64,000 bases of DNA, taken from assembly GCA_965116235.1 (NCBI GenBank), contig OZ220496.1, positions 2,782,693 through 2,846,692 on the forward strand, read 5' to 3'. A program made the translations under genes and the position numbers. Positions 6,142 to 58,552 of the stretch are shown one piece after another; position 1 is the stretch's first letter, and each line of letters begins with the position of its first letter. The notes beneath the pieces were generated by a model, which was not told where the DNA came from, ran no database searches, and saw nothing but the letters and a program-made list of their open reading frames with translations. This stretch comes from Paracoccaceae bacterium. Lineage in GTDB: Bacteria > Pseudomonadota > Alphaproteobacteria > Rhodobacterales > Rhodobacteraceae.

Positions 6142-7464
6142 ATGAACGTTGCTGTCGTGTTACTTGGGGCCGGCAAAGGCAGTCGGATGCAGTCTCAAGA
6201 GCCAAAGGTTCTGCACGAGATTGCCGGAGCCCCAATGTACTATCATGCGTTTCAGGCGGCACAAGACCTCAAGCCGACTCGAACCGTATTTGTAACCGGA
6301 CCTGAAAACCGGAAAATAATCAACTCCCTGCAAGCATTTGATGTTTCGGCCGAAGTCGTTGTCCAGCCGCAGCAGTTGGGTACGGGGCATGCAGTTTCGC
6401 TGGCGATGCAGGAACTGGGAAATTTTGCGGGGACCGTCCTTGTACTTTATGGTGATACTCCTTTGCTCAAACCCACCTCCCTGCAACGCTTGCTCAAATC
6501 GGCTGAAGACGGTTCCTCCTTCGCTTTTCTGGGATTCGAGGCTACGAATCCAAGGCGGTACGGACGGGTGTTTCTAGACGATGCGGGCTATGTAAGCCGA
6601 ATACGGGAAGCCAAAGACCTGGAGCCGGGCGAATCAAGGCACAATCTTTGCAATGGCGGCATATTGTGCGGCCAGGCAAAAGCCTTGACCGAACTAATCC
6701 CTCTAATCCGCAATGACAATGCCAGCGGAGAATACTATCTCACCGACATACCGGAAATCGCGCGGATGAGAGGGATCCGAACTTTTCTTGCCCGTTGCAC
6801 GGAGGCTGAAGCCATGGGCATAAACACCCGCAGCGAACTGGCGGCCGCTGAAGCCGAGTATCAGTGCCGGGCCAGAGAATTGTTCATGGCCCGGGGGGTC
6901 AGTCTTGTTGATCCTCAATCGGTCTACTTCAGTTACGATACAGACATCAACCCGGATGTGAGAATTGAACCCAACGTCGTGATCGGCAGGGGTGTGTCGC
7001 TTCAGTCCCATGTAGTCATACATTCCTTTTCTTATCTGGAAGGATGCTCGATCGCTTCGGGAGTCCGTATTGGTCCTTTTGCCCGTATTCGGCCTGGAAC
7101 GCACATTGATGTGGGCGCCCGCGTGGGCAACTTCGTTGAAATCAAGGCGACCGCACTCGGGGCCGGGGCAAAGGTTTCCCATCTGACTTATGTCGGCGAT
7201 GCCGAGGTCGGCAAAGACACGAACATTGGAGCCGGGACAGTCTTCTGCAATTACGATGGCACACGAAAAAACAGGACGGTCGTCGGCGACAATGCCTTCA
7301 TAGGCTCGAATACCCTCTTGGTTGCGCCAGTCGAAGTGGGCGATGGCGCCATTACGGGGGCGGGAACGGTGGTTACTCGCAATGTGCCGGCCGATTCACT
7401 GGGAATCGCTCGTTCAAAGCAAATCAACAAGGTTGGCCTAGCGCCCCGTTTCCGATCCAGGTAA
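6142..7464 (+). CDS. glmU: bifunctional UDP-N-acetylglucosamine pyrophosphorylase / glucosamine-1-phosphate N-acetyltransferase
   Basis: N-terminal VVLLGAGKGSRM nucleotidyltransferase motif and C-terminal hexapeptide repeats (left-handed beta-helix). The ATG at 6142 (MNVAVV) is preferred over the TTG at 6097. Confidence 0.95.
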   Translation: MNVAVVLLGAGKGSRMQSQEPKVLHEIAGAPMYYHAFQAAQDLKPTRTVFVTGPENRKIINSLQAFDVSAEVVVQPQQLGTGHAVSLAMQELGNFAGTVLVLYGDTPLLKPTSLQRLLKSAEDGSSFAFLGFEATNPRRYGRVFLDDAGYVSRIREAKDLEPGESRHNLCNGGILCGQAKALTELIPLIRNDNASGEYYLTDIPEIARMRGIRTFLARCTEAEAMGINTRSELAAAEAEYQCRARELFMARGVSLVDPQSVYFSYDTDINPDVRIEPNVVIGRGVSLQSHVVIHSFSYLEGCSIASGVRIGPFARIRPGTHIDVGARVGNFVEIKATALGAGAKVSHLTYVGDAEVGKDTNIGAGTVFCNYDGTRKNRTVVGDNAFIGSNTLLVAPVEVGDGAITGAGTVVTRNVPADSLGIARSKQINKVGLAPRFRSR

Positions 7465-29808: not shown

Positions 29809-32800
29809 TCAGAAGCGGAAGGTCACGGACAGACCGCCCCCAAAGTCGGTGTTGTCGCTCCCCGCCGTCGCATAAAAGGCATCCCCCGTCAGTAGCGTCG
29901 TGTCGTGGCCGCCCAGAGACATCGCCCCGCCCACGCCCAGACGCACCCAGGTCGGCTTCACCTCCGTCGCCAGCCGGGTGCCGGCCACCATCACCGCATG
30001 CTTGGACGAGAACTCATGCTCCAGATCCAAAGACGCATACAGCCGACCGTCGGTATCCTCCGGACCCAACTCGGCCAAGACACCTACACGACCCTGAACG
30101 CTCTGCTCCTTGTCCGGAGCAACCCGGCCGGCTCCATCGATCCGGGTCGGTTCGTCAAAGGCGTCCATGTCCACCGATGACCAAGACAGACCCCCACGCG
30201 GAATCACGGTCATGCCTCCCATACTCATCGGCTGACCGACTTCCACTCCGAGCGCCAGACCGTTGCCACCTCCCTTGGAGGTGATCGCACCGACCGCACT
30301 GTTGGCCGACACCATCGTGATATCAAAGAACCGGGTGTAGCTCAGCTGGCCGTCCACATACAGCCCGCGGTCGTCCGTCCAGGTCAGGGACAGGCCCACA
30401 CCGGTGCCGCTCGCTTCCATGGTGCCACCCTTCTTGACGGTGGCCTCACTTTGCCGGTAGTGGGCACTCACGCCCAGCACCAGACGCTCATCGGTCGGCA
30501 CTTCCAGACCCGCCTCAAAGTCGGTCTGCTTGACATCCCATGCCAGAGACTGACGCCAAAAGTCCTGGGCCGTCGTCGATGTATCGGCCATCCGCTCACC
30601 GTCACGGACCGCCAGACGTACCCAGACACCCGTGCGGGAACTTGGAGTTACCACATGCTCGCCCTTGCTGCTCTCGACCATGACCTCCTCGTCGCCGGTG
30701 GTCCGGCGGGGCACCGCCATGCGCGTACTGTAGGGCGTCAGGTCCACCAGACCCAGAAGCACCGACGGCAACACCTCATACAGACGCGCCCGATGGCTGT
30801 ACAGACGCAAGACCGGAGCCGACGGATCATCCTCGAATTGGTAACCATCCGTAATCTTCTCGAGCTGGGCCTTGAACACCTGTTCGTACACACCCATCCG
30901 GTCGCCACGGCGGTAGACATGATCATTCACCTTCAGATCATTCTCGGTTCCGGATGCACTGCGGGTCTTGAACTCGAGTGTGGAACGGGTCCTCTCCTTG
31001 TTCTCTTCTTCTATATCCTGGGCCGCGGACACGCGGTTCAGGATCTTGCCTTCGACATGACCCACGACACCCGCCTCATCCTTCTCCAGAATCACCGCGA
31101 CAACTTCGGCCTGGTCATCGTCAGCCTTGGGATCCACCTCGATGGCCACGCCGGATTTCGCCTTGACATGCGCGCGAGGACCAATCACGATCGTGCCACC
31201 CCCCTTCTCGCTCGCGCCTAGCGCGACTATGCTGCTTCTCCGGATGCGCACGCCGGCACATATGTTCTGGCCCGTCTTCGTGTTGGTGCATGCCGAGTCA
31301 CCACCCATGACCGTACCGCGGATGGTAAGAGCAAACTTGTCGACGGCCGAGCCGCGCTTGTCGACCATGATGCCATAATGGTCCGCCGTGATCACGCTGC
31401 CTTCCTTGGTCTCGACCGTGGCCGTGGCACCAGCGTAAGCACGGGCACGGATGCCAACCTTCTTCGCCGTGATGCGGCTGCCCGCCTCCATCGTGATCGA
31501 TACGGCCTTGTAGCCTTGCGCATGAATGCCCGCAGGTGATGTGCCCGTAGTAGGTTCTGCACCCGCCGTGATCTTGCCTCTGTGGGTGATCGTGATGGTA
31601 CCGGTGCGGTCGGGGTCAAGGTAAACCGCAATCCCATATCCGCTTGCCACAATCTCGCTGTCCGCTCCTGTCTTAATCACGACGTCGCCCCCGGCTGTCG
31701 TTTCGCCAGGATCTAGGAGTCGTACATACATCCCAAAATTGTCTTCGGTGAGTATACTCCCCAAGTGCCTGATCATGATTTTGCCTTTGGCGTCTGCGGT
31801 TAGATCCATATTGATGCCGTACTCCTGCGCCTTTATGCTGCTGCCTGGCATCGTTGTGACCGTGACGTCTCGGATGCCTTTCGCTTCAATACCATGTCCA
31901 GCCGCATCGATCAGGCCTCCGTGGGTGATCCTGATGTTGCCGATGCGTTTATTTCCGCCAATCTCGGCCTTGATCCCATACGGGTAGACTCCATTGTCAC
32001 TGGCTGATTGGTTTCGGTTCGTCTTGATCTTGCTGCCCGCTCCCGTCTCAATCACGATGTCGCCCTTGATCCCGCTCCCGCTTGTGGGATCCTCCAGGGA
32101 TGCACTTATTCCATGCGTGGCATATATTGCGCCTTGGTGCGTGATCGTGATTGTGCCGACACCCGCGGGCTTTATAGCTGCGACAATGCCATACGCACTG
32201 ATGGGGTTGCCATCCGCGCCGAGCGTCACTCCGGGATCAACCGTAATCGTGATACCACCCTTGGCATGCTGCTCGACATCCATGCCATAGCCCTGCTCAT
32301 AATTCTCGCCGCTGTCATGCGCAAGAATGGAACCGCCCTTGAGATGGACCGTGATCGGTATCGTCGTGCCCGCGGCGGCTTCGTCAGTGCGAACGTGGAT
32401 GCCTTTTTTGGGACCGCGCGGCACCGGCAGCGGCGGCGTCGCCTTCGACACGTCAATTGTGGCGCTCGACTCAAGATGGATGCCCCCGGTCACCCCGTCC
32501 TTTTTATTGGCCTTGTCTTCGGCTTCCCCCGTGTGTTTAAGGTCAATGCCCAATAATCCCCCAGCACCCGAGGTAGTGATGATGCTCTTTTCGTCCAGTA
32601 CGAGCTTGAGCAAGCCGGTTCCGGCACGCTCCATGCCTATGCCCGTGCCCTGCGAATAGGTCGCGATACGGCCTGTGACCACAACATCACGGGCGCCACC
32701 AGTTGTGGCGGTAATGCTGAGGGCACCGCCGGTGAGGTGTTTTGCGGTTGGGCTTTCGCCAAGCACGGCCCCGTTCAAGTCCAGTGTCAGACCTCCGGTC

Positions 32801-33081
32801 AGTCCGCGGCATGAAATCACGTCCGTGTATGGCTCGTCACTGCTCAGGGCAAACTTGGGCAGCGTTCCATCTGTACCCGTGCATGTTTGGGCCGCAACCG
32901 AATGTGGTACCGCCAGGAGCATCCCCAGCCCGACAAACAGCGCTCCAATTGTCGAAGGCCCGAAGCCCGGTCCACGGAGGGACCCAACCGAGAGATCATC
33001 TACCCCCCCCCTGCTCGTGTTCATGGGCACGCACGGGCCGGCCCCGTCCGCCCAGATCGAAATCAATCCTGTCATGATCAT
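29809..33081 (-). CDS. autotransporter outer membrane protein (large repetitive beta-helix-type passenger plus C-terminal beta-barrel); reading frame intact
   Basis: Signal-like STIGALFVGLGMLLAVPHSVAAQ. Long Gly/Thr/Ile-rich passenger with recurring units such as ...GTITITH.G.I.A...GI.A... C-terminal about 280 aa barrel region ending GGGLSVTFRF (terminal aromatic). Start taken as the ATG at 33081 (MIMTGL) with GAGAAGGGAA upstream. The 33216 TTG start in the track reads through the promoter region. Confidence 0.85.
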   Translation of the reverse strand: MIMTGLISIWADGAGPCVPMNTSRGGVDDLSVGSLRGPGFGPSTIGALFVGLGMLLAVPHSVAAQTCTGTDGTLPKFALSSDEPYTDVISCRGLTGGLTLDLNGAVLGESPTAKHLTGGALSITATTGGARDVVVTGRIATYSQGTGIGMERAGTGLLKLVLDEKSIITTSGAGGLLGIDLKHTGEAEDKANKKDGVTGGIHLESSATIDVSKATPPLPVPRGPKKGIHVRTDEAAAGTTIPITVHLKGGSILAHDSGENYEQGYGMDVEQHAKGGITITVDPGVTLGADGNPISAYGIVAAIKPAGVGTITITHQGAIYATHGISASLEDPTSGSGIKGDIVIETGAGSKIKTNRNQSASDNGVYPYGIKAEIGGNKRIGNIRITHGGLIDAAGHGIEAKGIRDVTVTTMPGSSIKAQEYGINMDLTADAKGKIMIRHLGSILTEDNFGMYVRLLDPGETTAGGDVVIKTGADSEIVASGYGIAVYLDPDRTGTITITHRGKITAGAEPTTGTSPAGIHAQGYKAVSITMEAGSRITAKKVGIRARAYAGATATVETKEGSVITADHYGIMVDKRGSAVDKFALTIRGTVMGGDSACTNTKTGQNICAGVRIRRSSIVALGASEKGGGTIVIGPRAHVKAKSGVAIEVDPKADDDQAEVVAVILEKDEAGVVGHVEGKILNRVSAAQDIEEENKERTRSTLEFKTRSASGTENDLKVNDHVYRRGDRMGVYEQVFKAQLEKITDGYQFEDDPSAPVLRLYSHRARLYEVLPSVLLGLVDLTPYSTRMAVPRRTTGDEEVMVESSKGEHVVTPSSRTGVWVRLAVRDGERMADTSTTAQDFWRQSLAWDVKQTDFEAGLEVPTDERLVLGVSAHYRQSEATVKKGGTMEASGTGVGLSLTWTDDRGLYVDGQLSYTRFFDITMVSANSAVGAITSKGGGNGLALGVEVGQPMSMGGMTVIPRGGLSWSSVDMDAFDEPTRIDGAGRVAPDKEQSVQGRVGVLAELGPEDTDGRLYASLDLEHEFSSKHAVMVAGTRLATEVKPTWVRLGVGGAMSLGGHDTTLLTGDAFYATAGSDNTDFGGGLSVTFRF
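33003..33011 (-). repeat. G9 homopolymer (C9 on the + strand) inside codons 23-26 of the left autotransporter
   Basis: AGC AGG GGG GGG GTA reads ...NTSRGGVDDL and is in frame. Confidence 0.9.
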
Positions 33082-33121
33082 TGTTCCCTTCTCGTTATCC
33101 AAAAAGTAAAGTCTGCTAAAA

Positions 33122-33150
33122 AATAAATGCCCCCCCCCCAAGATTTGCAA
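33122..33150 (-). promoter_or_regulatory. putative sigma70-type promoter of the left autotransporter, with a G10 tract in the spacer
   Basis: On the gene strand: TTGCAA-ATCTT-G10-CA-TTTATT, a 17 nt spacer, about 40 nt upstream of the ATG. The tract is 33130-33139 (C10 on the + strand). The -35/-10 assignment is by eye only. Confidence 0.45.
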
Positions 33151-33186
33151 CTCTTTTGTGACGCTCCGGTTCATTTTTCTCCAAAC

Positions 33187-33204
33187 TGTCGCATGCATGC
33201 GACA
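33187..33204. promoter_or_regulatory. 18 bp perfect palindrome TGTCGCATGCATGCGACA upstream of the left autotransporter promoter
   Basis: Self-complementary over all 18 nt. It lies 36 nt upstream of the putative -35 and about 30 nt after the stop of the Cys-rich ORF. It could be an operator or a terminator stem. Confidence 0.3.
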
Positions 33205-33234
33205 CACCGGCTTCAACGATGTGTTGTGGCTTAC

Positions 33235-33786
33235 TCAGGGGAAAGCCTCGGACGGTGCACGATTGATCACGACTATATCAAGGGTTGAGCCTTTTCTGGT
33301 GTTCCCGTATCCCGACATGTGTGGCCCTGTTGGGCCGTTTTGGTGGATGGGGTCATGCGTCGGGCTGGGATGACGGCAAAAAGTGACAGCCCTGTACCGC
33401 CGTTGCCGGATATTCCTGAGGTCACCGAAGTCCGGAGGCGGACACACGCTCCCGCAGGAGGCGGGGTTGTCGCCATGGCAACAGCTGCAATGCTCCCAGC
33501 CGCTGGCGGGGCTGTATTTGGTCAACGTGGCACGACACGGCAACGGATCGGCAAAACGCCAAACCGGTATGCGGCCGAACCGGGCAATGATGGCTTCCAA
33601 GCCCAAGGCAACGGCACCTTGCCGACCAGCTTTCAGGTTGGGGATGACACTCGGTGGCGGATTGCGATTGACAAGAGGCGATTTGCGGAATTGCCGAGCA
33701 CTTTTGTCCCAAACGGATTTCCGCTGCTTGATGGTAGGTCGGGAGGCATGATCCGGCATGGTCGCGATACGCATGAACACACGCAT
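33235..33786 (-). CDS. hypothetical Cys-rich protein conserved in both repeat arms (intact copy)
   Basis: 183 aa ORF with GWEHCSCCHGDNPASCGSVCPPP. Across the first ~57 codons the two arms differ at 8 synonymous third positions against 3 replacements, which supports this frame. The C-terminal half is much more divergent. I recognise no family. Confidence 0.4.
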   Translation of the reverse strand: MRVFMRIATMPDHASRPTIKQRKSVWDKSARQFRKSPLVNRNPPPSVIPNLKAGRQGAVALGLEAIIARFGRIPVWRFADPLPCRATLTKYSPASGWEHCSCCHGDNPASCGSVCPPPDFGDLRNIRQRRYRAVTFCRHPSPTHDPIHQNGPTGPHMSGYGNTRKGSTLDIVVINRAPSEAFP

Positions 33787-47889: not shown

Positions 47890-48428
47890 ATGCGTATCGC
47901 GACCATGCCGGATCATGACTCCCGGCCCACCATCAAGCAGCGAAAATCCGTTTGGGACAAAGATGCCCGGCAATTCCGCAAATCGCCTCTTGTCAATCGC
48001 AACCCGCCACCGAGCGTCATCACCAACCTGAAAGCCGGCCGGCAAGGTCCGCTGCCTTGCGCTTGGAAGCCATCATTGCCCGGTTCGGCCGCATACCGGT
48101 TTGACGTTTTGCCGATCGGTTGCCGTGTCGTGCCATGTTGACCGAATACAACCCCGCCAGCGGCTGGGAGCATTGTAGCTGCGGCCATGGCGAAGACACC
48201 CACCCCTGCGGGAGCGTGTGTCCGCCTCCGGACTTCGGCGACCTCAGGGATATCCGGCAACGGCGGTACAGCGCTGTCACTTTTTGCCGTCATCCCAGCC
48301 CGGCACATGACCCCATCCACCAACACGACCCAACAGGGCCACACATGGCGGGATGCGGGAATGCCGAAAAAGGCTCAACCCTTAGTGCAGTCGTGATCAC
48401 TCGTGCGCCGTCCGAGGCTTTCCCCTGA
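47890..48428 (+). pseudogene. second copy of the Cys-rich arm ORF, split by a 1-nt deletion
   Basis: Homologous to 33235-33786 throughout, but CAAGGTGCCGTTGCC in the left copy is CAAGGTCCGCTGCC here (about 48046-48060). The frame therefore shifts and ends at 48141, and homology resumes in the track ORF 48120-48428. Confidence 0.45.
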
Positions 48429-48458
48429 GTAAGCCACAACACATCGTTGAAGCCGGGG

Positions 48459-48476
48459 TGTCGCAGGCATGCGACA
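48459..48476. promoter_or_regulatory. imperfect copy of the arm palindrome (TGTCGCAGGCATGCGACA)
   Basis: Same position relative to the promoter as in the left arm, with one mismatch from perfect dyad symmetry. Confidence 0.25.
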
Positions 48477-48512
48477 GTTTGGAGAAAAATGAACCGGAGC
48501 GTCACAAAAGGG

Positions 48513-48540
48513 TTGCAAATCTTGGGGGGGGGCATTTAAT
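48513..48540 (+). promoter_or_regulatory. putative sigma70-type promoter of the right autotransporter, with a G9 tract in the spacer
   Basis: TTGCAA-ATCTT-G9-CA-TTTAAT, a 16 nt spacer. The tract is 48524-48532. AGGAG lies 5 nt before the ATG at 48586. Confidence 0.45.
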
Positions 48541-48585
48541 GTCAACGAGTTCTATTTTCTATTTTTGGATAGCAAGACAGGAGTA

Positions 48586-51521
48586 ATGATGATGAAATTG
48601 ACTTCACTTTGGGGCCGACGCGGCCATCCGGCCCCTGCCTGTGAACGCGTCGGGGGGGGGTAGATGACCTTGCGACCCGCCCCCGCGTCGGGTCGGCATT
48701 CAGGCTTGCGACGATTGGAGCGCTGCTTGTCGGGCTCGGGATGCTTGTCGCCTCGCCGCATCCCTCAGCGGCCCAAGGCACCTGCTCCGTAAGTGACGGG
48801 ACGAATTCGGAAACGGTTCCGGATGGCAATCCGCCGGAGGTTACCAAGACCGGCCAGTACGACGAGCAACTTGATTGCAAGGGACTCGCCAACGGCCTGA
48901 AGCTGACGCTGGATGACTTCAAGGTCGGCACAAGCGACGACCCAGCTGATGAAAGAGGTCTTATCGTTAACGCGGATGGTGCCGAAGGCGACGATGTCAC
49001 GGTCATGGGCAAAGTAGTCATCCATTCCGATAAGTCCGGCATAAACCTGTCACGGGACGGGACGGGATTGCTCAAGTTGCAGTTGGATCCGGAAAGCGAA
49101 ATCAATATCGCGTTGTCCGATGATGATGATGCGCGCATGAGAGGGAACAGTGGCATTTTTCTCGAGCACTCGGGGGAAGCCGATACGGCTCTTGATGGCG
49201 GCATCCACCTCGTGTCGAGTGCCAAGATTGACGTGTCGAAGTCGCTGTACGTCGGCAAGGCAGGCATCGCTGTTAGGACCGGGGAAACAGAATCGGACAC
49301 AGCCGAGGGCACGACGATACCGATCACGATCCATCTCAAGGGCGGTTTCATTCGTGCGGAGGACACTGACAGTAAGAAACAGTCGGGAAATGGCATCAGA
49401 GTCATTCAGTACGCCAAGGGCAAAGTCGACATCACGGTGGACCCGGGGGTGATGATCGGCATGGAAGGCAAATCCATCGGCCGGGCTGGCATTGATGCTA
49501 CGATTTTTCCCAAGGGCGACGGCAACCTCGTGATCAAGCACTCAGGGCATATATACGCCGACGAGTATGGAATATATGCATCCTTAGCAGATCCTGGCGA
49601 CACGCCAGCCGGGGGCGACATCACGATTGAGACGGGAGCGGACAGCGTGATTGACACAAGCGGGTATGGGATTGCGGCTTACCTTGAAGAAGACCGCACC
49701 GGGACCATCAAGATCAACCACTATGGCAAGATCAAGGCGGGTGCCCAAGCGGGTATTCATGCGCAAGGTGACAAGGCCATATCGATCACGATGGAGGCGG
49801 GCAGCCGCATCACGGCGACGGAGATTGGCCTTCGTGCCCTCGCTTACCTTGGCGCCACGGCCACGGTCGAGACCAAGGAAGGCAGCGTGATCACGGCGGA
49901 CCATCATGGCGTTCAGGTTGACCAAAGAAGCCCGAAGCAAGGAGACCCGGCCATAACAAAGTTTACTGTCACCATCCGCGGCACGGTCATGGGTGGTGCC
50001 ACCGAATACGCCGGTGTGCACATCTTTAAGAGGGATCTGCCGCCGGATGGAACTCAGGGAGATTCTGGGTATTGGGCAGGAGATCCGACGCCGAGCGGAG
50101 TGGGCGGCACGATCGTGATCGGTCCCCGGGCGCATGTGAGCAGTTTCCATGCCCAGCCCGATACTGAATCCGCGAAGAAGGTGGCCATCAAGGTGGATGC
50201 CGGTGCGAGCACCGCCACCGCTCCGGTGACCATCATCCTGGAAAAGGACGAGGCGGGTGTTGTGGGTCATGTTGAAGGCCAGATCCTGAACCTCGCGGCG
50301 ACAGGAAACAGCAAGGGAAAAACGGACGAACCACCCCGCTCGACACTCGAGTTCAAGGTGTCGGGAAGTAAGACGGCTCTGGAACCGGGTGCCCCCGATG
50401 CGATCATTTATCGTCGTGGCCAACGGATGGGCGTATATGAACAGGTGTTCAAGGCTAAGCTCGAGGAGCTTGACGATGATAAGGGTTACCAGTTCAAGGA
50501 TGTTGCGTCGGCTCCGGTCTTGCGTCTGTACAGCCATCGGGCGCGTCTGTATGAGGTGGTGCCGTCGGTGCTTCTGGGTCTGGTGGAGCTGACGCCCTAC
50601 AGCACGCGCATGGCCATGCCCCGCCGGAGCACCGGCAACGAGGAGGTCATGGTCGAGAGCAGCAAGGGGGAGCATGTGGCGGTGCCGGGTGCCCGCACGG
50701 GTGTCTGGGTGCGTCTGGCGGTTCGCGATGGGGAACGGATGGCCGATACATCGACGACCGCAACGGACTTCTGGCGTCAGTCTCTGGCGTGGGATGTGAA
50801 GCAGACCGGCTTTGAGGCGGGTCTGGAGGTGCCGACCGATGAGCGTCTGGTGCTGGGCGTGAGTGCCCACTACCGGCAGAGCGAGGCCACCGTCAGGAAT
50901 GGTGGCACCATGGAAGCGAGCGGCACCGGTGTGGGCGTGTCCCTGACCTGGACGGACGACAGCGGGCTGTATGTGGACGGCCAGTTGAGCTACACCCGGT
51001 TCTTTGATATCACGATGGTGTCGGCCAACGGTGCGGTTGGTGCGATCACCTCCACGGGTGGCGGCACCGGTCTGGCGTTCGGTGTGGAAGTCGGCCAGCC
51101 GATGAGCATGGGGGGCATGACCGTGATTCCGCGTGGGGGTCTGTCCTGGTCATCGGTGGACATGGATGCCTTTGACGAACCGGCCAGGATCGATGGAGCC
51201 GGCCGGGTTGCTCCGGACAAGGAGCAGAGCGTTCAGGGTCGTGTGGGCGTGCTGGCTGAGCTGGGTTCCGGGGAGGCGGACGGTCGGCTGTATGCATCGC
51301 TGGATCTGGAGCATGAGTTCTCGTCCAAGCGTGCGGTGATGGTAGCCGGCACCCGGCTGACGACCGAGGTGAAGCCGACCTGGGTGCGTCTGGGCGTCGG
51401 CGGGGCGATGTCTCTGGGCGGCCACGACACGACGCTACTGACGGGGGATGCCTTTTATGCGACGGCGGGGAGCGACAACACCGACTTTGGGGGTGGCGTG
51501 TCCCTGACCTTCCGCTTCTGA
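48586..51521 (+). CDS. autotransporter outer membrane protein, paralog of 29809-33081; frame broken at a G9 tract (phase-OFF as sequenced)
   Basis: ATG ATG ATG AAA... (MMMKLTSLWGRRGHPAPACERVGGG) hits TAG at 48661. With one more G the frame runs GGGVDDLATRPRVGSAFRLATIGALLVGLGMLVASPHPSAAQG into the 926 aa track ORF (48741-51521). That continuation aligns with the left copy (RGGVDDLSVGSLRGPGFGPSTIGALFVGLGMLLAV). The protein ends GGGVSLTFRF. Confidence 0.8.
48652..48660 (+). repeat. G9 homopolymer in the 5' coding region of the right autotransporter
   Basis: Read directly: GTC GGG GGG GGG TAG. The main ORF is in the frame reached with G10 (or G7/G13). Confidence 0.9.
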
Positions 51522-55765: not shown

Positions 55766-56788
55766 ATGGAGTTTGGATTCATGATGGATGAGAGCCTTTT
55801 CGGAGTCCGCGACAAGCGTGGACATTGGCGACCCTTCAGGCGAGTCAAGTACCCGCCGTTGTTCACTTGGCCCGTCAGGATTCGTCCCCTTTTGGCGTGG
55901 ATATTTCGCTGGAATGGCTACATTTACCCGTACAACCTGCTGTATGCTGTCGTAGGCATCCTGGTTTGGACCTACCTGACCCCCGACCTGTCAACGATGC
56001 AGTCATTTGGCTTCGACTGGGTTCTTTTCATCCTGCTCAGAAATGCCGGCATCATGACCCTTTGGTACGGCCTGTTTCATCTGCGTCTATACATTGTCAA
56101 GGGCCAGGGAACCGCGTTCAAATATAACCCCAAATGGCCGGAAACCGACAGTTCCGGTTTTCTGTTTCGAAATCAAACCATCGACAATCTGATCTGGTGC
56201 TACTTCAGTGCCTTGCCTCTGTGGACTGCATATGAAGCGGCAACCCTTTGGATGATGGCAAACGGATTTATTCCTGTTTTGGCCTTCACCGAGAATCCGG
56301 TGCTGTTTGTTGCACTATTTTTTGCCATTCCACTGTTCAGAGAAGTTCATTTTTACTTTATCCACCGACTGATCCACTGGCCTCCACTCTATCGTGCCTG
56401 CCACAAGGTTCATCATGCCAACTCCAATCCAGGTCCTTGGTCGGGATTGTCCATGCATCCCGGAGAACATCTTATTTATTTTTCAAGTGTCCTGTTGCAT
56501 TGGATTGTTCCCTCGAACCCGGTACATGTCGTATTCCATATGGTTCACCTGACCATGTCACCACCTGTGACTCATTCGGGATTTGAAAAGGTCGTTCTGG
56601 ATGATGGCAAGGCTGTCGACACCAATGCATTGGCTCACTACCTTCACCACAAGTATTTTGAAGTGAACTATTCTGATGGAGCCGTGCCACTTGACAAGTG
56701 GTTCGGATCGTTTCATGACGGGTCGCCGGAGGGCGACAAGCTGGTCCAGCAAAGGTTAAGACACCTCAAGGCTCGATCCGTAAAATAG
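55766..56788 (+). CDS. fatty acid hydroxylase / sterol desaturase family membrane protein
   Basis: Histidine boxes HFYFIHRLIH, HKVHH and HYLHHKY, with several TM segments. Confidence 0.85.
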   Translation: MEFGFMMDESLFGVRDKRGHWRPFRRVKYPPLFTWPVRIRPLLAWIFRWNGYIYPYNLLYAVVGILVWTYLTPDLSTMQSFGFDWVLFILLRNAGIMTLWYGLFHLRLYIVKGQGTAFKYNPKWPETDSSGFLFRNQTIDNLIWCYFSALPLWTAYEAATLWMMANGFIPVLAFTENPVLFVALFFAIPLFREVHFYFIHRLIHWPPLYRACHKVHHANSNPGPWSGLSMHPGEHLIYFSSVLLHWIVPSNPVHVVFHMVHLTMSPPVTHSGFEKVVLDDGKAVDTNALAHYLHHKYFEVNYSDGAVPLDKWFGSFHDGSPEGDKLVQQRLRHLKARSVK

Positions 56789-56852: not shown

Positions 56853-56862
56853 GGGGGGGGGG
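56853..56862. repeat. G10 homopolymer in a convergent intergenic region
   Basis: Read directly: GAAGGCT-G10-ACGAC, between the stops of 55766-56788 (+) and 57007-57678 (-). Confidence 0.9.
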
Positions 56863-57006: not shown

Positions 57007-57678
57007 TCAGTTTTCATGGGAAACCGGCTCGAAATCAACCATGTCACGTGCTGTTCGGGCAATGAAAAGCCCGACGATTCGAGTTTGCGGGAATCGCTTT
57101 GTTAAGATTGACTTTGCGGCTCGAAAATGTGCACCCGTTGTCAGGACGTCATCGACGATGACAATTCGTTCTTGAACGGGCATAATGCACTGCTTGTCAT
57201 CAACACGATATAGATTTTCGATCTGCTCAGGACGCATCCGCTCTTCTTTAACATGAACCGATTCTGTACTCGCGATCTGAACAATGAGTTCGCGGATATC
57301 AAGAGGTGGAGTGGGACGAATGGAATTTAGCATCCGTACCATTCGGTCATCGTAAAGGGGATCATCTTTTGCCTTTGATGGTGGAATCGGCACAAAGGTC
57401 AGGCGGTCCAGAACTTTCAGCAGGGCAGATTTAAACGCGGTTGCAGTCTCTCGAATAGCCTTCTCTTTGTATTTCCACTCCGGCAATCCACGACGGTCCG
57501 TCGGTTTCTTGAAGTTTATTATCAGTTGATTGGTCGTACTGTGCCTGTACCCCTCACCGGCACTATATTCACCGAAAAAGCAACACGCATCGTCATCATT
57601 CAGATACCAATGGTCTTGACGTGTCAGTTGGTCGATCTCAGTCAGACGATGTGGAAAGGTATTGGCAGATTTCATCAT
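57007..57678 (-). CDS. phosphoribosyltransferase-domain protein (ComF-like PRTase core without the N-terminal zinc finger)
   Basis: PRPP loop RIVIVDDVLTTGAHFRAAKSIL near the C-terminus. The ATG ATG at 57678/57675 is preceded by AAGGA. The longest track ORF (to 57783) would overlap the upstream gene by 146 nt. Confidence 0.75.
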   Translation of the reverse strand: MMKSANTFPHRLTEIDQLTRQDHWYLNDDDACCFFGEYSAGEGYRHSTTNQLIINFKKPTDRRGLPEWKYKEKAIRETATAFKSALLKVLDRLTFVPIPPSKAKDDPLYDDRMVRMLNSIRPTPPLDIRELIVQIASTESVHVKEERMRPEQIENLYRVDDKQCIMPVQERIVIVDDVLTTGAHFRAAKSILTKRFPQTRIVGLFIARTARDMVDFEPVSHEN

Positions 57679-58552
57679 AATCCTTGACACGTAAGGCACC
57701 TTTATTGGCAAGCCTGTCGGGCCACCTGAGGCGCTGATCTTGGAAGCAACTGTCAAGAATGAACAGCTTGCGGCCCTGTTCAAGTGCCGCGCGGGCTTGA
57801 ATGAGTGTACCCGATGTCTCCCCGGCCTCCACGATTATGGTGGCTTCGGTGAGAGCCGACATGGTTTTGTTCCGTTCTGGAAAGAACAGGCGATTCTGCC
57901 GATAATCCTGAGATTCGTAGCGTATGACTGGCACTTGGCTGATGACCAAAAAGTGTTCGGCGATCTGACTTTGCAACTCGGCGTTCTCTTTCGGATAGAC
58001 ATGTGACAATGGGGTACCTACGACTGCGATCGTCCGCCCGTTCTCCTCCATAGCGGTTTCATGAGCCATGCGGTCAACTCCAGCCGCCAAACCGGAGACA
58101 ACTGTGAAGCCGTCCTGCACCAAATCGCTTACCAATCGTCTGGTATAGGCAAGTCCTTGTTGCGACGGCTTACGGGTGCCGACCACGGCAACCGAGCGCG
58201 AAGCCGTCAGGTCCCACCAACCTTGATAGTAGAAGCATTCGATAGGATGTGCCGCATCACGGAGTTTATCGGGATACTCGGCTGAGCCGTGAACCCGCAC
58301 CCCAAACCGCCCAACTCCGGCTTCTTCAAACTTCTGCTTGACGCGGTCGGCATACTCATAGGCACGGTCGACGGAAACGAAATCTGACGGAAGGCTGTCG
58401 GGGTAGCGGGCAAACCGTTGAGACAAGGACCTGAACGTTGTCTTCGGTTCTGTCCACAAGACTTCGTATGCCCCCATCTCCAAAAATGGAGAAACCGCCA
58501 GACTTTCAAAATCCGGTCGGCCAAGTGGGAGTTCTGCCGTCATCCCTTGCAC
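57638..58552 (-). CDS. DprA/Smf-like (SLOG Rossmann fold) protein lacking the C-terminal winged-helix extension
   Basis: VAVVGTRKPS...VVSGLAAGVDRMAHETAL..GRTIAVVGTPLSHVYPKEN...FPERNKTMSALTEATIIVEAGETSGTLIQARAALEQGRKLFIL matches the DprA core. 304 aa. Start is the GTG at 58552 or the ATG at 58543. Confidence 0.8.
   Translation of the reverse strand: MQGMTAELPLGRPDFESLAVSPFLEMGAYEVLWTEPKTTFRSLSQRFARYPDSLPSDFVSVDRAYEYADRVKQKFEEAGVGRFGVRVHGSAEYPDKLRDAAHPIECFYYQGWWDLTASRSVAVVGTRKPSQQGLAYTRRLVSDLVQDGFTVVSGLAAGVDRMAHETAMEENGRTIAVVGTPLSHVYPKENAELQSQIAEHFLVISQVPVIRYESQDYRQNRLFFPERNKTMSALTEATIIVEAGETSGTLIQARAALEQGRKLFILDSCFQDQRLRWPDRLANKGALRVKDYDEICQYLSTSSD

Follow-up and report, generated by a model that had tools for sequence, protein, structure and literature searches.

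In a 64,000-nt window of the genome of an uncultured Paracoccaceae bacterium (GenBank assembly GCA_965116235.1, contig OZ220496.1, positions 2,782,693 to 2,846,692), an autotransporter gene on the minus strand probably undergoes slipped-strand phase variation through a poly-G tract in its leader, and its assembled consensus is in the ON state. We refer to this gene as the left copy and to a paralog further along the window as the right copy; all coordinates are those of the window, meaning the whole stretch of DNA analyzed, unless marked as genome positions. The left open reading frame (ORF; 29809..33081, minus strand) runs uninterrupted from the ATG at 33081 to a stop codon at 29811..29809 and specifies 1,090 amino acids. 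Its gene strand begins ATG ATC ATG ACA GGA TTG ATT TCG ATC TGG GCG GAC GGG GCC GGC CCG TGC GTG CCC and continues ATG AAC ACG AGC AGG GGG GGG GTA GAT GAT CTC through the tract. The G9 run begins 70 nt after the start codon, occupies 33011..33003 on the minus strand (C9 at 33003-33011 on the plus strand), and encodes R24-G25-G26 and the first base of V27 (codons 24-27). The first-pass annotation had described the tract as in frame with this start and with the whole 1,090-residue ORF, and a re-reading of sequence and frame agrees. The start at 33081 is preceded by a purine-rich, Shine-Dalgarno-like GAGAAGGGA (33085..33093, minus strand) and aligns with the Shine-Dalgarno-plus-ATG arrangement of the paralogs, which have GACAGGAGTA or GAAAAGGGAACA at the same place. 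A nearer ATG at 33024 has no Shine-Dalgarno-like context and is missing from the right copy.

Changing the length of the left tract in silico gives a sharp outcome. G9 yields the 1,090-residue product, G8 leads to a stop at codon 26, and G10 leads to a stop at codon 28, with ON lengths of 6, 9, or 12. Both stops come from the sequence TAGATGA directly 3' of the tract (32996..33002, minus strand), which presents TAG at G8 and TGA at G10. The tract lies ~20 residues N-terminal to the hydrophobic core of the predicted signal peptide, and gain or loss of a glycine at this point should be tolerated. The gene thus has two hallmarks of a contingency locus: a repeat of hypermutable length in the 5' coding region or promoter (the coding G9 and a G10 in the putative promoter spacer) and, in silico, a reading frame switched by repeat number (G8/G9/G10).

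The right copy carries a tract of equal length in the opposite frame state. Its leader (48586..48663, plus strand) starts at ATG 48586 and ends TGT GAA CGC GTC GGG GGG GGG TAG, with G9 at 48652-48660 and the TAG at 48661-48663 (OFF); the long ORF body (48660 to 51521) is rejoined by G10 or G7. That the same G9 leaves the left copy ON and the right copy OFF had been noted at first pass, and the frame logic holds in both leaders. The cause then suggested, a difference just 5' of the tract (AGCA versus GTC), is insufficient by itself: the opposite frames are real, but they result from a net 4-nt difference in start-to-tract distance (66 nt in the right copy, 70 nt in the left) produced by three indels in the alignment (+3, -1, and +2). 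Because each copy has its own tract, it is a reasonable inference that the two switch independently. The two proteins are 49% identical in the N-terminal half and 77% identical in the C-terminal part. Their genes form the arms of inverted repeats that face away from each other ~15 kb apart (left, 29809-33400, minus strand; right, 48300-51521, plus strand), with sarcosine oxidase genes in the intervening DNA. The 5' regions are conserved, as are the 3' halves (77% identity at the protein level), and inversion or gene conversion between the arms could draw on them.

Beyond this pair, the left gene belongs to a family of ~40 paralogs, ~39 of which have a tract at the homologous position. Matches to the autotransporter beta-domain PF03797 number 45 in this genome (a single contig of 3.25 Mb, 52.9% G+C, 96% completeness) versus 1-9 in each of 13 same-genus genomes. 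Homologs of the left protein were absent from those 13 genomes at E<1e-20, and a search of genome contigs with the autotransporter found no relative. We worked out starts and frames, with manual corrections, for the 35 paralogs in which the tract is present and the ORF reaches 750 codons or more. Seven are in frame, at genome positions 487198, 864623, 1338582, 2022807, 2310935, 2815703 (the left gene), and 2934209, and 28 are out of frame. All 28 OFF paralogs retain an open ORF of 800-1100 codons 3' of the tract, which argues against decay. In most paralogs, both shifted frames terminate within 24-29 codons in total, one to three codons past the tract, where TAGATGA is read as TAG or as TGA depending on the direction of the shift. 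Being one of only seven copies readable in the consensus, the left copy is a natural first choice in looking for an expressed autotransporter.

The tract length that keeps the frame open is not the same throughout the family, since the distance from start to tract varies. After corrections, the ON length is 8/11 in ~12 paralogs, 9 in 12, and 7/10 in 11, and it is this variation that allows the common G9 to leave the left copy ON and its neighbor OFF. Small indels between the conserved N-terminus (MxMTxLISIW) and the tract are what sets the ON length of each copy. The stretch that separates these two elements is kept as DNA (gcccatgaacgcga) while being read in different frames across paralogs, and the peptide encoded by the corresponding leader stretch of the left gene (33011-33081) seems unconstrained. 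Among paralogs with an ON length of 9, 5/12 are at G9, versus 19/23 of the others (Fisher p=0.022, a post hoc test on a small sample), which hints that the OFF state is favored. Overall, 7/35 are ON, where one third would be expected by chance (binomial p=0.063).

Genome-wide run lengths set the G/C tracts apart from other homopolymers. Runs of G/C of lengths 6 to 12 number 380, 14, 25, 132, 31, 11, and 1, a bimodal distribution, whereas A/T runs fall smoothly from length 6 (1455, 346, 73, and 2). This bimodality, together with the homologous position in ~39 paralogs, indicates that the tract is not a chance feature. The genome holds 200 G/C tracts of at least 8 nt, with a modal length of 9, and 102 of the 200 are followed by TA. 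By context, 39 are of the autotransporter-leader type G(n)TAGATGA, 30 have TTGCAA within 20 nt upstream, 15 lie at the homologous leader site of a porin family, and the other 116 occur in other contexts. As a separate observation, six of the 13 same-genus genomes (G003-G008) are also rich in G9 (58-247 overlapping matches), without the autotransporter family or the TTGCAAA-G(n) motif; two of these, G006 and G007 (both single-contig), gave no MutS_V match.

Tract length also differs between strains. Strain-variant contigs from the same metagenome (ENA assembly ERZ24894574) were reached via homologs found by protein search, and orthologous tracts with conserved flanks were compared. Four of nine orthologous sister tracts differ in length between the variant contigs and this genome. 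On contig L094 (98.6% identity), the coding tract is G10 in the variant and G8 in this genome, the upstream tract is G9 and G11, respectively, and a third tract has length 9 in both. Contig L096 (99.2% identity) has a promoter tract of G9 against G7 here and a coding tract of 9 in both. Contig L095 (~92% identity) has a coding tract of G9, for which a 1,141-residue ORF is called (ON), and the ortholog in this genome has G10 (OFF); its promoter tract is 9 in both. The promoter and coding tracts of L098 (~95% identity) are 9 and 9 in both strains. Over the two closest pairs (15.7 kb), three of four small indels are 2-nt poly-G changes and none falls in another homopolymer. At the level of the family, then, nothing at these loci changes faster than tract length, and ON/OFF state differs between strains. 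A further contig, L097 (2786-5880, compared with genome positions 1941959-1944474), carries an autotransporter gene (promoter G8, leader G11) beside flanks 99.8% identical to this genome. For the gene itself, the top match here reaches only 86% identity and is located elsewhere. This arrangement suggests presence/absence variation or allele replacement between strains.

The leader design extends to a second species in the same sample. A co-resident circular genome of 3.01 Mb, from the same ENA assembly, has 14 or more autotransporters with 37-41% identity to the left protein. Their layout, as seen on L099 of that genome, is ATG, ~20 codons, G23 (G16 in the next gene), TAGG, signal peptide, and AQSCT. 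These leader tracts, G23 at 2857-2879 and G16 at 6548-6563, are much longer than those in the genome studied here. The shared layout implies that the leader tract predates the species split and was kept. Scans of metagenome contigs with leader-motif patterns returned nothing but one unrelated, AT-rich chance match.

A second poly-G tract lies upstream of the left start codon, where the gene strand reads TTGCAA (33150..33145), ATCTT, G10 (33139..33130), CA, and TTTATT (33127..33122). We read TTGCAA as the -35-like hexamer of a putative promoter and TTTATT as a presumed -10-like hexamer that matches the consensus weakly. The upstream G10 would then sit in the spacer of a TTGCAA-type promoter, where ATCTT, G10, and CA add up to 17 nt. 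In the right copy, the upstream tract is G9 (48524-48532), giving a 16-nt spacer, and paralogs without the tract read TTGCAA/TTGCTA-N17-TAnnnT at the promoter position. The pattern TTGCAAA-N4-9-G8 has 44 overlapping matches in the genome (~27 distinct sites by our own count) against 0 for a reversed-pattern control and 0-2 in same-genus genomes. The promoter tract appears a likely modulator of transcription through the -35/-10 spacing.

The upstream tract was also considered as part of a longer ORF. An ATG at 33174 (minus strand), preceded by GGAG, opens a frame through the promoter tract that G10 places in frame with the autotransporter ORF; with a promoter G9, this frame would end at a TGA overlapping the start codon (ATGA). 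We set this alternative aside in favor of the promoter reading because the frame is open only in two paralogs and its equivalent in the right copy stops right after the promoter tract. The frame from ATG 33174 is probably coincidental.

Taken together, these features would fit the following mechanism. A poly-G tract in a long N-terminal leader, ~20 codons before the hydrophobic core of the signal peptide, would gate expression. At G9, the frame is intact, and the preprotein would be made, exported by the Sec pathway, inserted as a beta-barrel, and its beta-solenoid passenger displayed. Slipped-strand mispairing during replication would alter the tract by one or two G's, and G8 or G10 would bring termination at codon 26 or 28 via the TAG or TGA of the conserved G(n)TAGATGA, a reversible form of silencing. 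The G10 of the promoter spacer would probably tune transcription through the -35/-10 spacing. Control would then have two tiers: the leader tract would turn expression fully ON or OFF, and the promoter tract would probably modulate it. Each of the ~40 paralogs of the same design could switch on its own. For the left gene, the mechanism predicts that the tract itself varies, that switching is frequent and reversible, that the upstream tract belongs to a working promoter, and that the protein is produced.

Several observations weigh against this account. Direct evidence of length variation comes from sister loci: no variant contig covers the left locus, the protein search gave no match above 82% identity other than the genome's own, and exact look-ups of four alternative left N-termini and two flanking proteins found nothing outside the same genome. 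At the promoter, a sigma-70 consensus scan called neither the TTGCAA promoter nor TTTATT, and across the subfamily the length of the promoter tract did not visibly follow the coding state; for example, the promoter tract is G9 in the paralog at genome position 2310935, which is ON. The genome encodes an intact MutS, and nothing points to a general repair defect as a source of increased slippage. An origin of the tracts in lost mismatch repair, even as a by-product, is accordingly rejected for this genome. Finally, ON describes the consensus of a single metagenome assembly, with contig names resembling those of hifiasm, and a homopolymer miscall or a mixed population could lie behind it.

The last of these points amounts to an explanation of its own, in which the left G9 call is an assembly artefact or a minority haplotype and the true state is mostly OFF. 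The single contig was assembled from a metagenome, homopolymers are the main error class of long reads, and the sampled population is heterogeneous, with strain-variant contigs in evidence. Set against this, the differences between contigs are mostly of 2 nt, are confined to poly-G, and spare A/T homopolymers, and the 96% completeness of the genome argues against widespread frameshift errors. We consider such an artefact unlikely, and a wrong call would alter the current state of the left copy only, not the mechanism. Another possibility is that the frame is set at the level of RNA or the ribosome, by RNA polymerase slippage or ribosomal frameshifting on G9. Every copy would then yield a mixture of frames, DNA tract length would bias expression instead of switching it, and ON and OFF would be matters of degree. 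Long homopolymers are sites of RNA polymerase slippage, a property documented chiefly for A/T runs of at least 9, and the data are compatible with leaky expression from OFF alleles. Differences in DNA length between strains are nonetheless seen directly, and the immediate stops in both shifted frames fit complete silencing when OFF. Neither a slippery heptamer nor a stimulatory structure came up, although no search was aimed at them. We regard an RNA-level origin of the frame states as very unlikely.

Decay offers a third account of the same pattern: the tracts would be mutational hot spots that degrade a redundant family, the OFF copies would be decaying pseudogenes, and the left copy would simply not yet have been hit, with no programmed switching involved. 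The 80% of copies that are out of frame would be expected under this view, as would the members that are truncated or carry extra stops (e.g., at genome positions 2108576 and 1998306), and lineage-specific decay has been reported for Campylobacter capC/capD (PMC7168839). Decay accounts poorly, however, for the long open frames that persist after the tract in all 28 OFF copies, for the retention of the tract and TAGATGA at the same site across subfamilies, and for the presence of the tract in a second species at ~40% protein identity. The excess of runs of 9 over runs of 7 (132 versus 14) implies that long tracts are maintained, and at one locus with conserved flanks the two strains differ, one being ON and the other OFF. 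We therefore regard simple decay as very unlikely and favor slipped-strand phase variation of an otherwise intact gene.

The left gene encodes, on the strength of domain and structure prediction, a classical (type Va) autotransporter. PF03797 is the sole Pfam match in the left protein (E=6e-30, residues 839-1059). An AlphaFold model built on a 38-sequence alignment (predicted template modeling score 0.72) has a disordered leader over residues 1-65 (per-residue confidence [pLDDT] below 50), short regular strands with high pLDDT over residues 75-760, a helix at 763-778 directly before the barrel, and C-terminal barrel strands at 818-1089. The helix corresponds to the linker of a type Va protein, and the PF03797 barrel to its translocator. 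On the minus strand, linker helix and C-terminal barrel translocator (residues 763-778 and 818-1090, from the model and Foldseek) map to 29812..30795, and the predicted passenger, beta-rich and solenoid-like in its strand pattern (~residues 65-760), to 30802..32889. Foldseek matched the barrel to the translocators of EstA, EspP, NalP, BrkA, AIDA-I, and Hbp, with template modeling scores normalized to the target of 0.7-0.8 for translocator-only entries and E values of 1e-12 to 1e-8; barrel matches dominated the list, which contained no structural match specific to the passenger. A sequence search of the PDB with the left protein gave no match. The leader reads MIMTGLISIWADGAGPCVPMNTSRGGVDDLSVGSLRGPGFGPSTIGALFVGLGMLLAVPHSVAA|QTC, in which a signal peptide was recognized by eye as a hydrophobic stretch at residues 44-58 followed by SVAA|Q. 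The hydrophobic core and predicted cleavage site (residues 44-64, STIGALFVGLGMLLAVPHSVAA|Q, read from the translation) span 32890..32952 on the minus strand. Among 38 homologs, residues P59, A64, Q65, and C67 show almost no variation.

Textbooks describe slipped-strand phase variation of surface proteins in host-adapted pathogens, among them Neisseria, Haemophilus, Helicobacter, Campylobacter, Bordetella, and Chlamydia. Our literature search found no report of it in Rhodobacterales. A close parallel is offered by the capC/capD autotransporters of Campylobacter jejuni/coli, whose poly-G is located in the putative promoter for capC and within the coding region for capD, nine G's being the commonest length (PMC7168839). 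CapC/CapD resemble the present family in being classical autotransporters with a conserved barrel, divergent passengers, and poly-G tracts that are most often G9 (PMC7168839). They differ in that both tract positions here occur in one gene, in ~40 paralogs per genome rather than one to few, and in an alphaproteobacterial host of 53% G+C; apart from the shared PF03797 domain, no relationship in sequence came to light. Two-tier slipped-strand control is known from Helicobacter pylori sabA, an outer-membrane adhesin gene with a promoter-region repeat and a 5' coding repeat (PMC2715451). There, the repeats are poly-T and CT, the product is a Hop-family protein, and switching has been shown experimentally, whereas in the present case it is predicted from sequence. 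Chlamydial PmpG proteins offer a precedent for an expanded set of autotransporter paralogs with variable poly-G, many of them frameshifted at the tract but otherwise intact and read as temporarily off (PMC6740158). Most Pmp tracts, in contrast, lie deep inside the gene rather than in the leader, no promoter tract has been described, and the hosts are obligate intracellular pathogens. For Neisseria meningitidis, the autotransporters NalP and MspA are described as switched by coding homopolymers (PMC3723659). Those are single genes without a promoter-plus-leader pair of G tracts.

The Neisseria opa genes form a multigene family whose members switch independently of one another, by means of repeats located where the signal peptide is encoded. 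Their repeats are CTCTT pentamers and their products are 8-stranded barrels, again without a promoter-plus-leader pair of G tracts. In Bordetella pertussis, a study of homopolymers reportedly located poly-G/C tracts at surface-protein genes, including autotransporters, and at fimbrial promoters, but with far fewer loci and without a uniform leader-tract design across a large family. The putative promoter-spacer tract would belong to the class of Bordetella fim, Neisseria porA/opc, and capC; here, the TTGCAA element is conserved and genome-specific, and the promoter is predicted. Given the capC/capD, sabA, PmpG, and NalP/MspA precedents, the mechanism itself is already known. The novelty lies in the lineage and the scale, in a promoter-plus-leader design used uniformly, and in having stops ready in both shifted frames. 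The result for the left copy alone is modest. If switching is confirmed, contingency-locus biology would reach an uncultured member of the Paracoccaceae that is probably marine and may be a symbiont. Its ~35 parallel natural switches would then allow study of how ON-length offsets, mutational bias toward G9, and selection determine the expressed fraction.

More tentatively, and with slightly less than even confidence, we propose that the ~200 poly-G tracts constitute a lineage-specific phasome that is mostly OFF and comprises ~40 autotransporters and ~15-20 porins, each under two-tier control by a promoter-spacer tract and a leader tract with stops in both shifted frames, as well as two tract-bearing DNA methyltransferase genes. 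Such a phasome would represent combinatorial surface variation at or above the scale of the classic mucosal pathogens. The genome holds the whole toolkit: its autotransporter and porin families are expanded, tracts occur in promoters as well as leaders, and DNA methylase genes bear them too. The second, co-resident species has the same leader design. Phage or host pressure could drive a phasome of this kind. The organism itself is likely marine and possibly host-associated or a symbiont. Its SoxA places it among Paracoccaceae/Rhodobacteraceae MAGs, sharing 65-69% identity with their SoxA proteins and 55-57% with those of Litoreibacter, Shimia, and Halocynthiibacter.

The porins form a second two-tier family of ~15-20 copies (Pfam Porin_4, E=7.5e-16). 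In these genes, TTGCAAAT...G9-TAAATG lies ~120 nt upstream of a leader tract, CCATGGA-G9-TAGACGCCTCCATGGATGA, with examples at genome positions 223418-223555, 697081-697215, 1126172-1126306, and 3160927-3161061. A G9 also occurs near the 5' end of two near-identical N6_N4 DNA methyltransferase genes (PF01555, E=1.5e-43), at genome positions 1946801-1946809 and 2582402-2582410, making both of them candidate phase-variable methylases (phasevarion). The window itself contains a third long homopolymer with no obvious promoter or coding role, a G10 at 56853-56862 (plus strand) that lies between convergent ORFs at 55766..56788 (plus strand) and 57007..57783 (minus strand).

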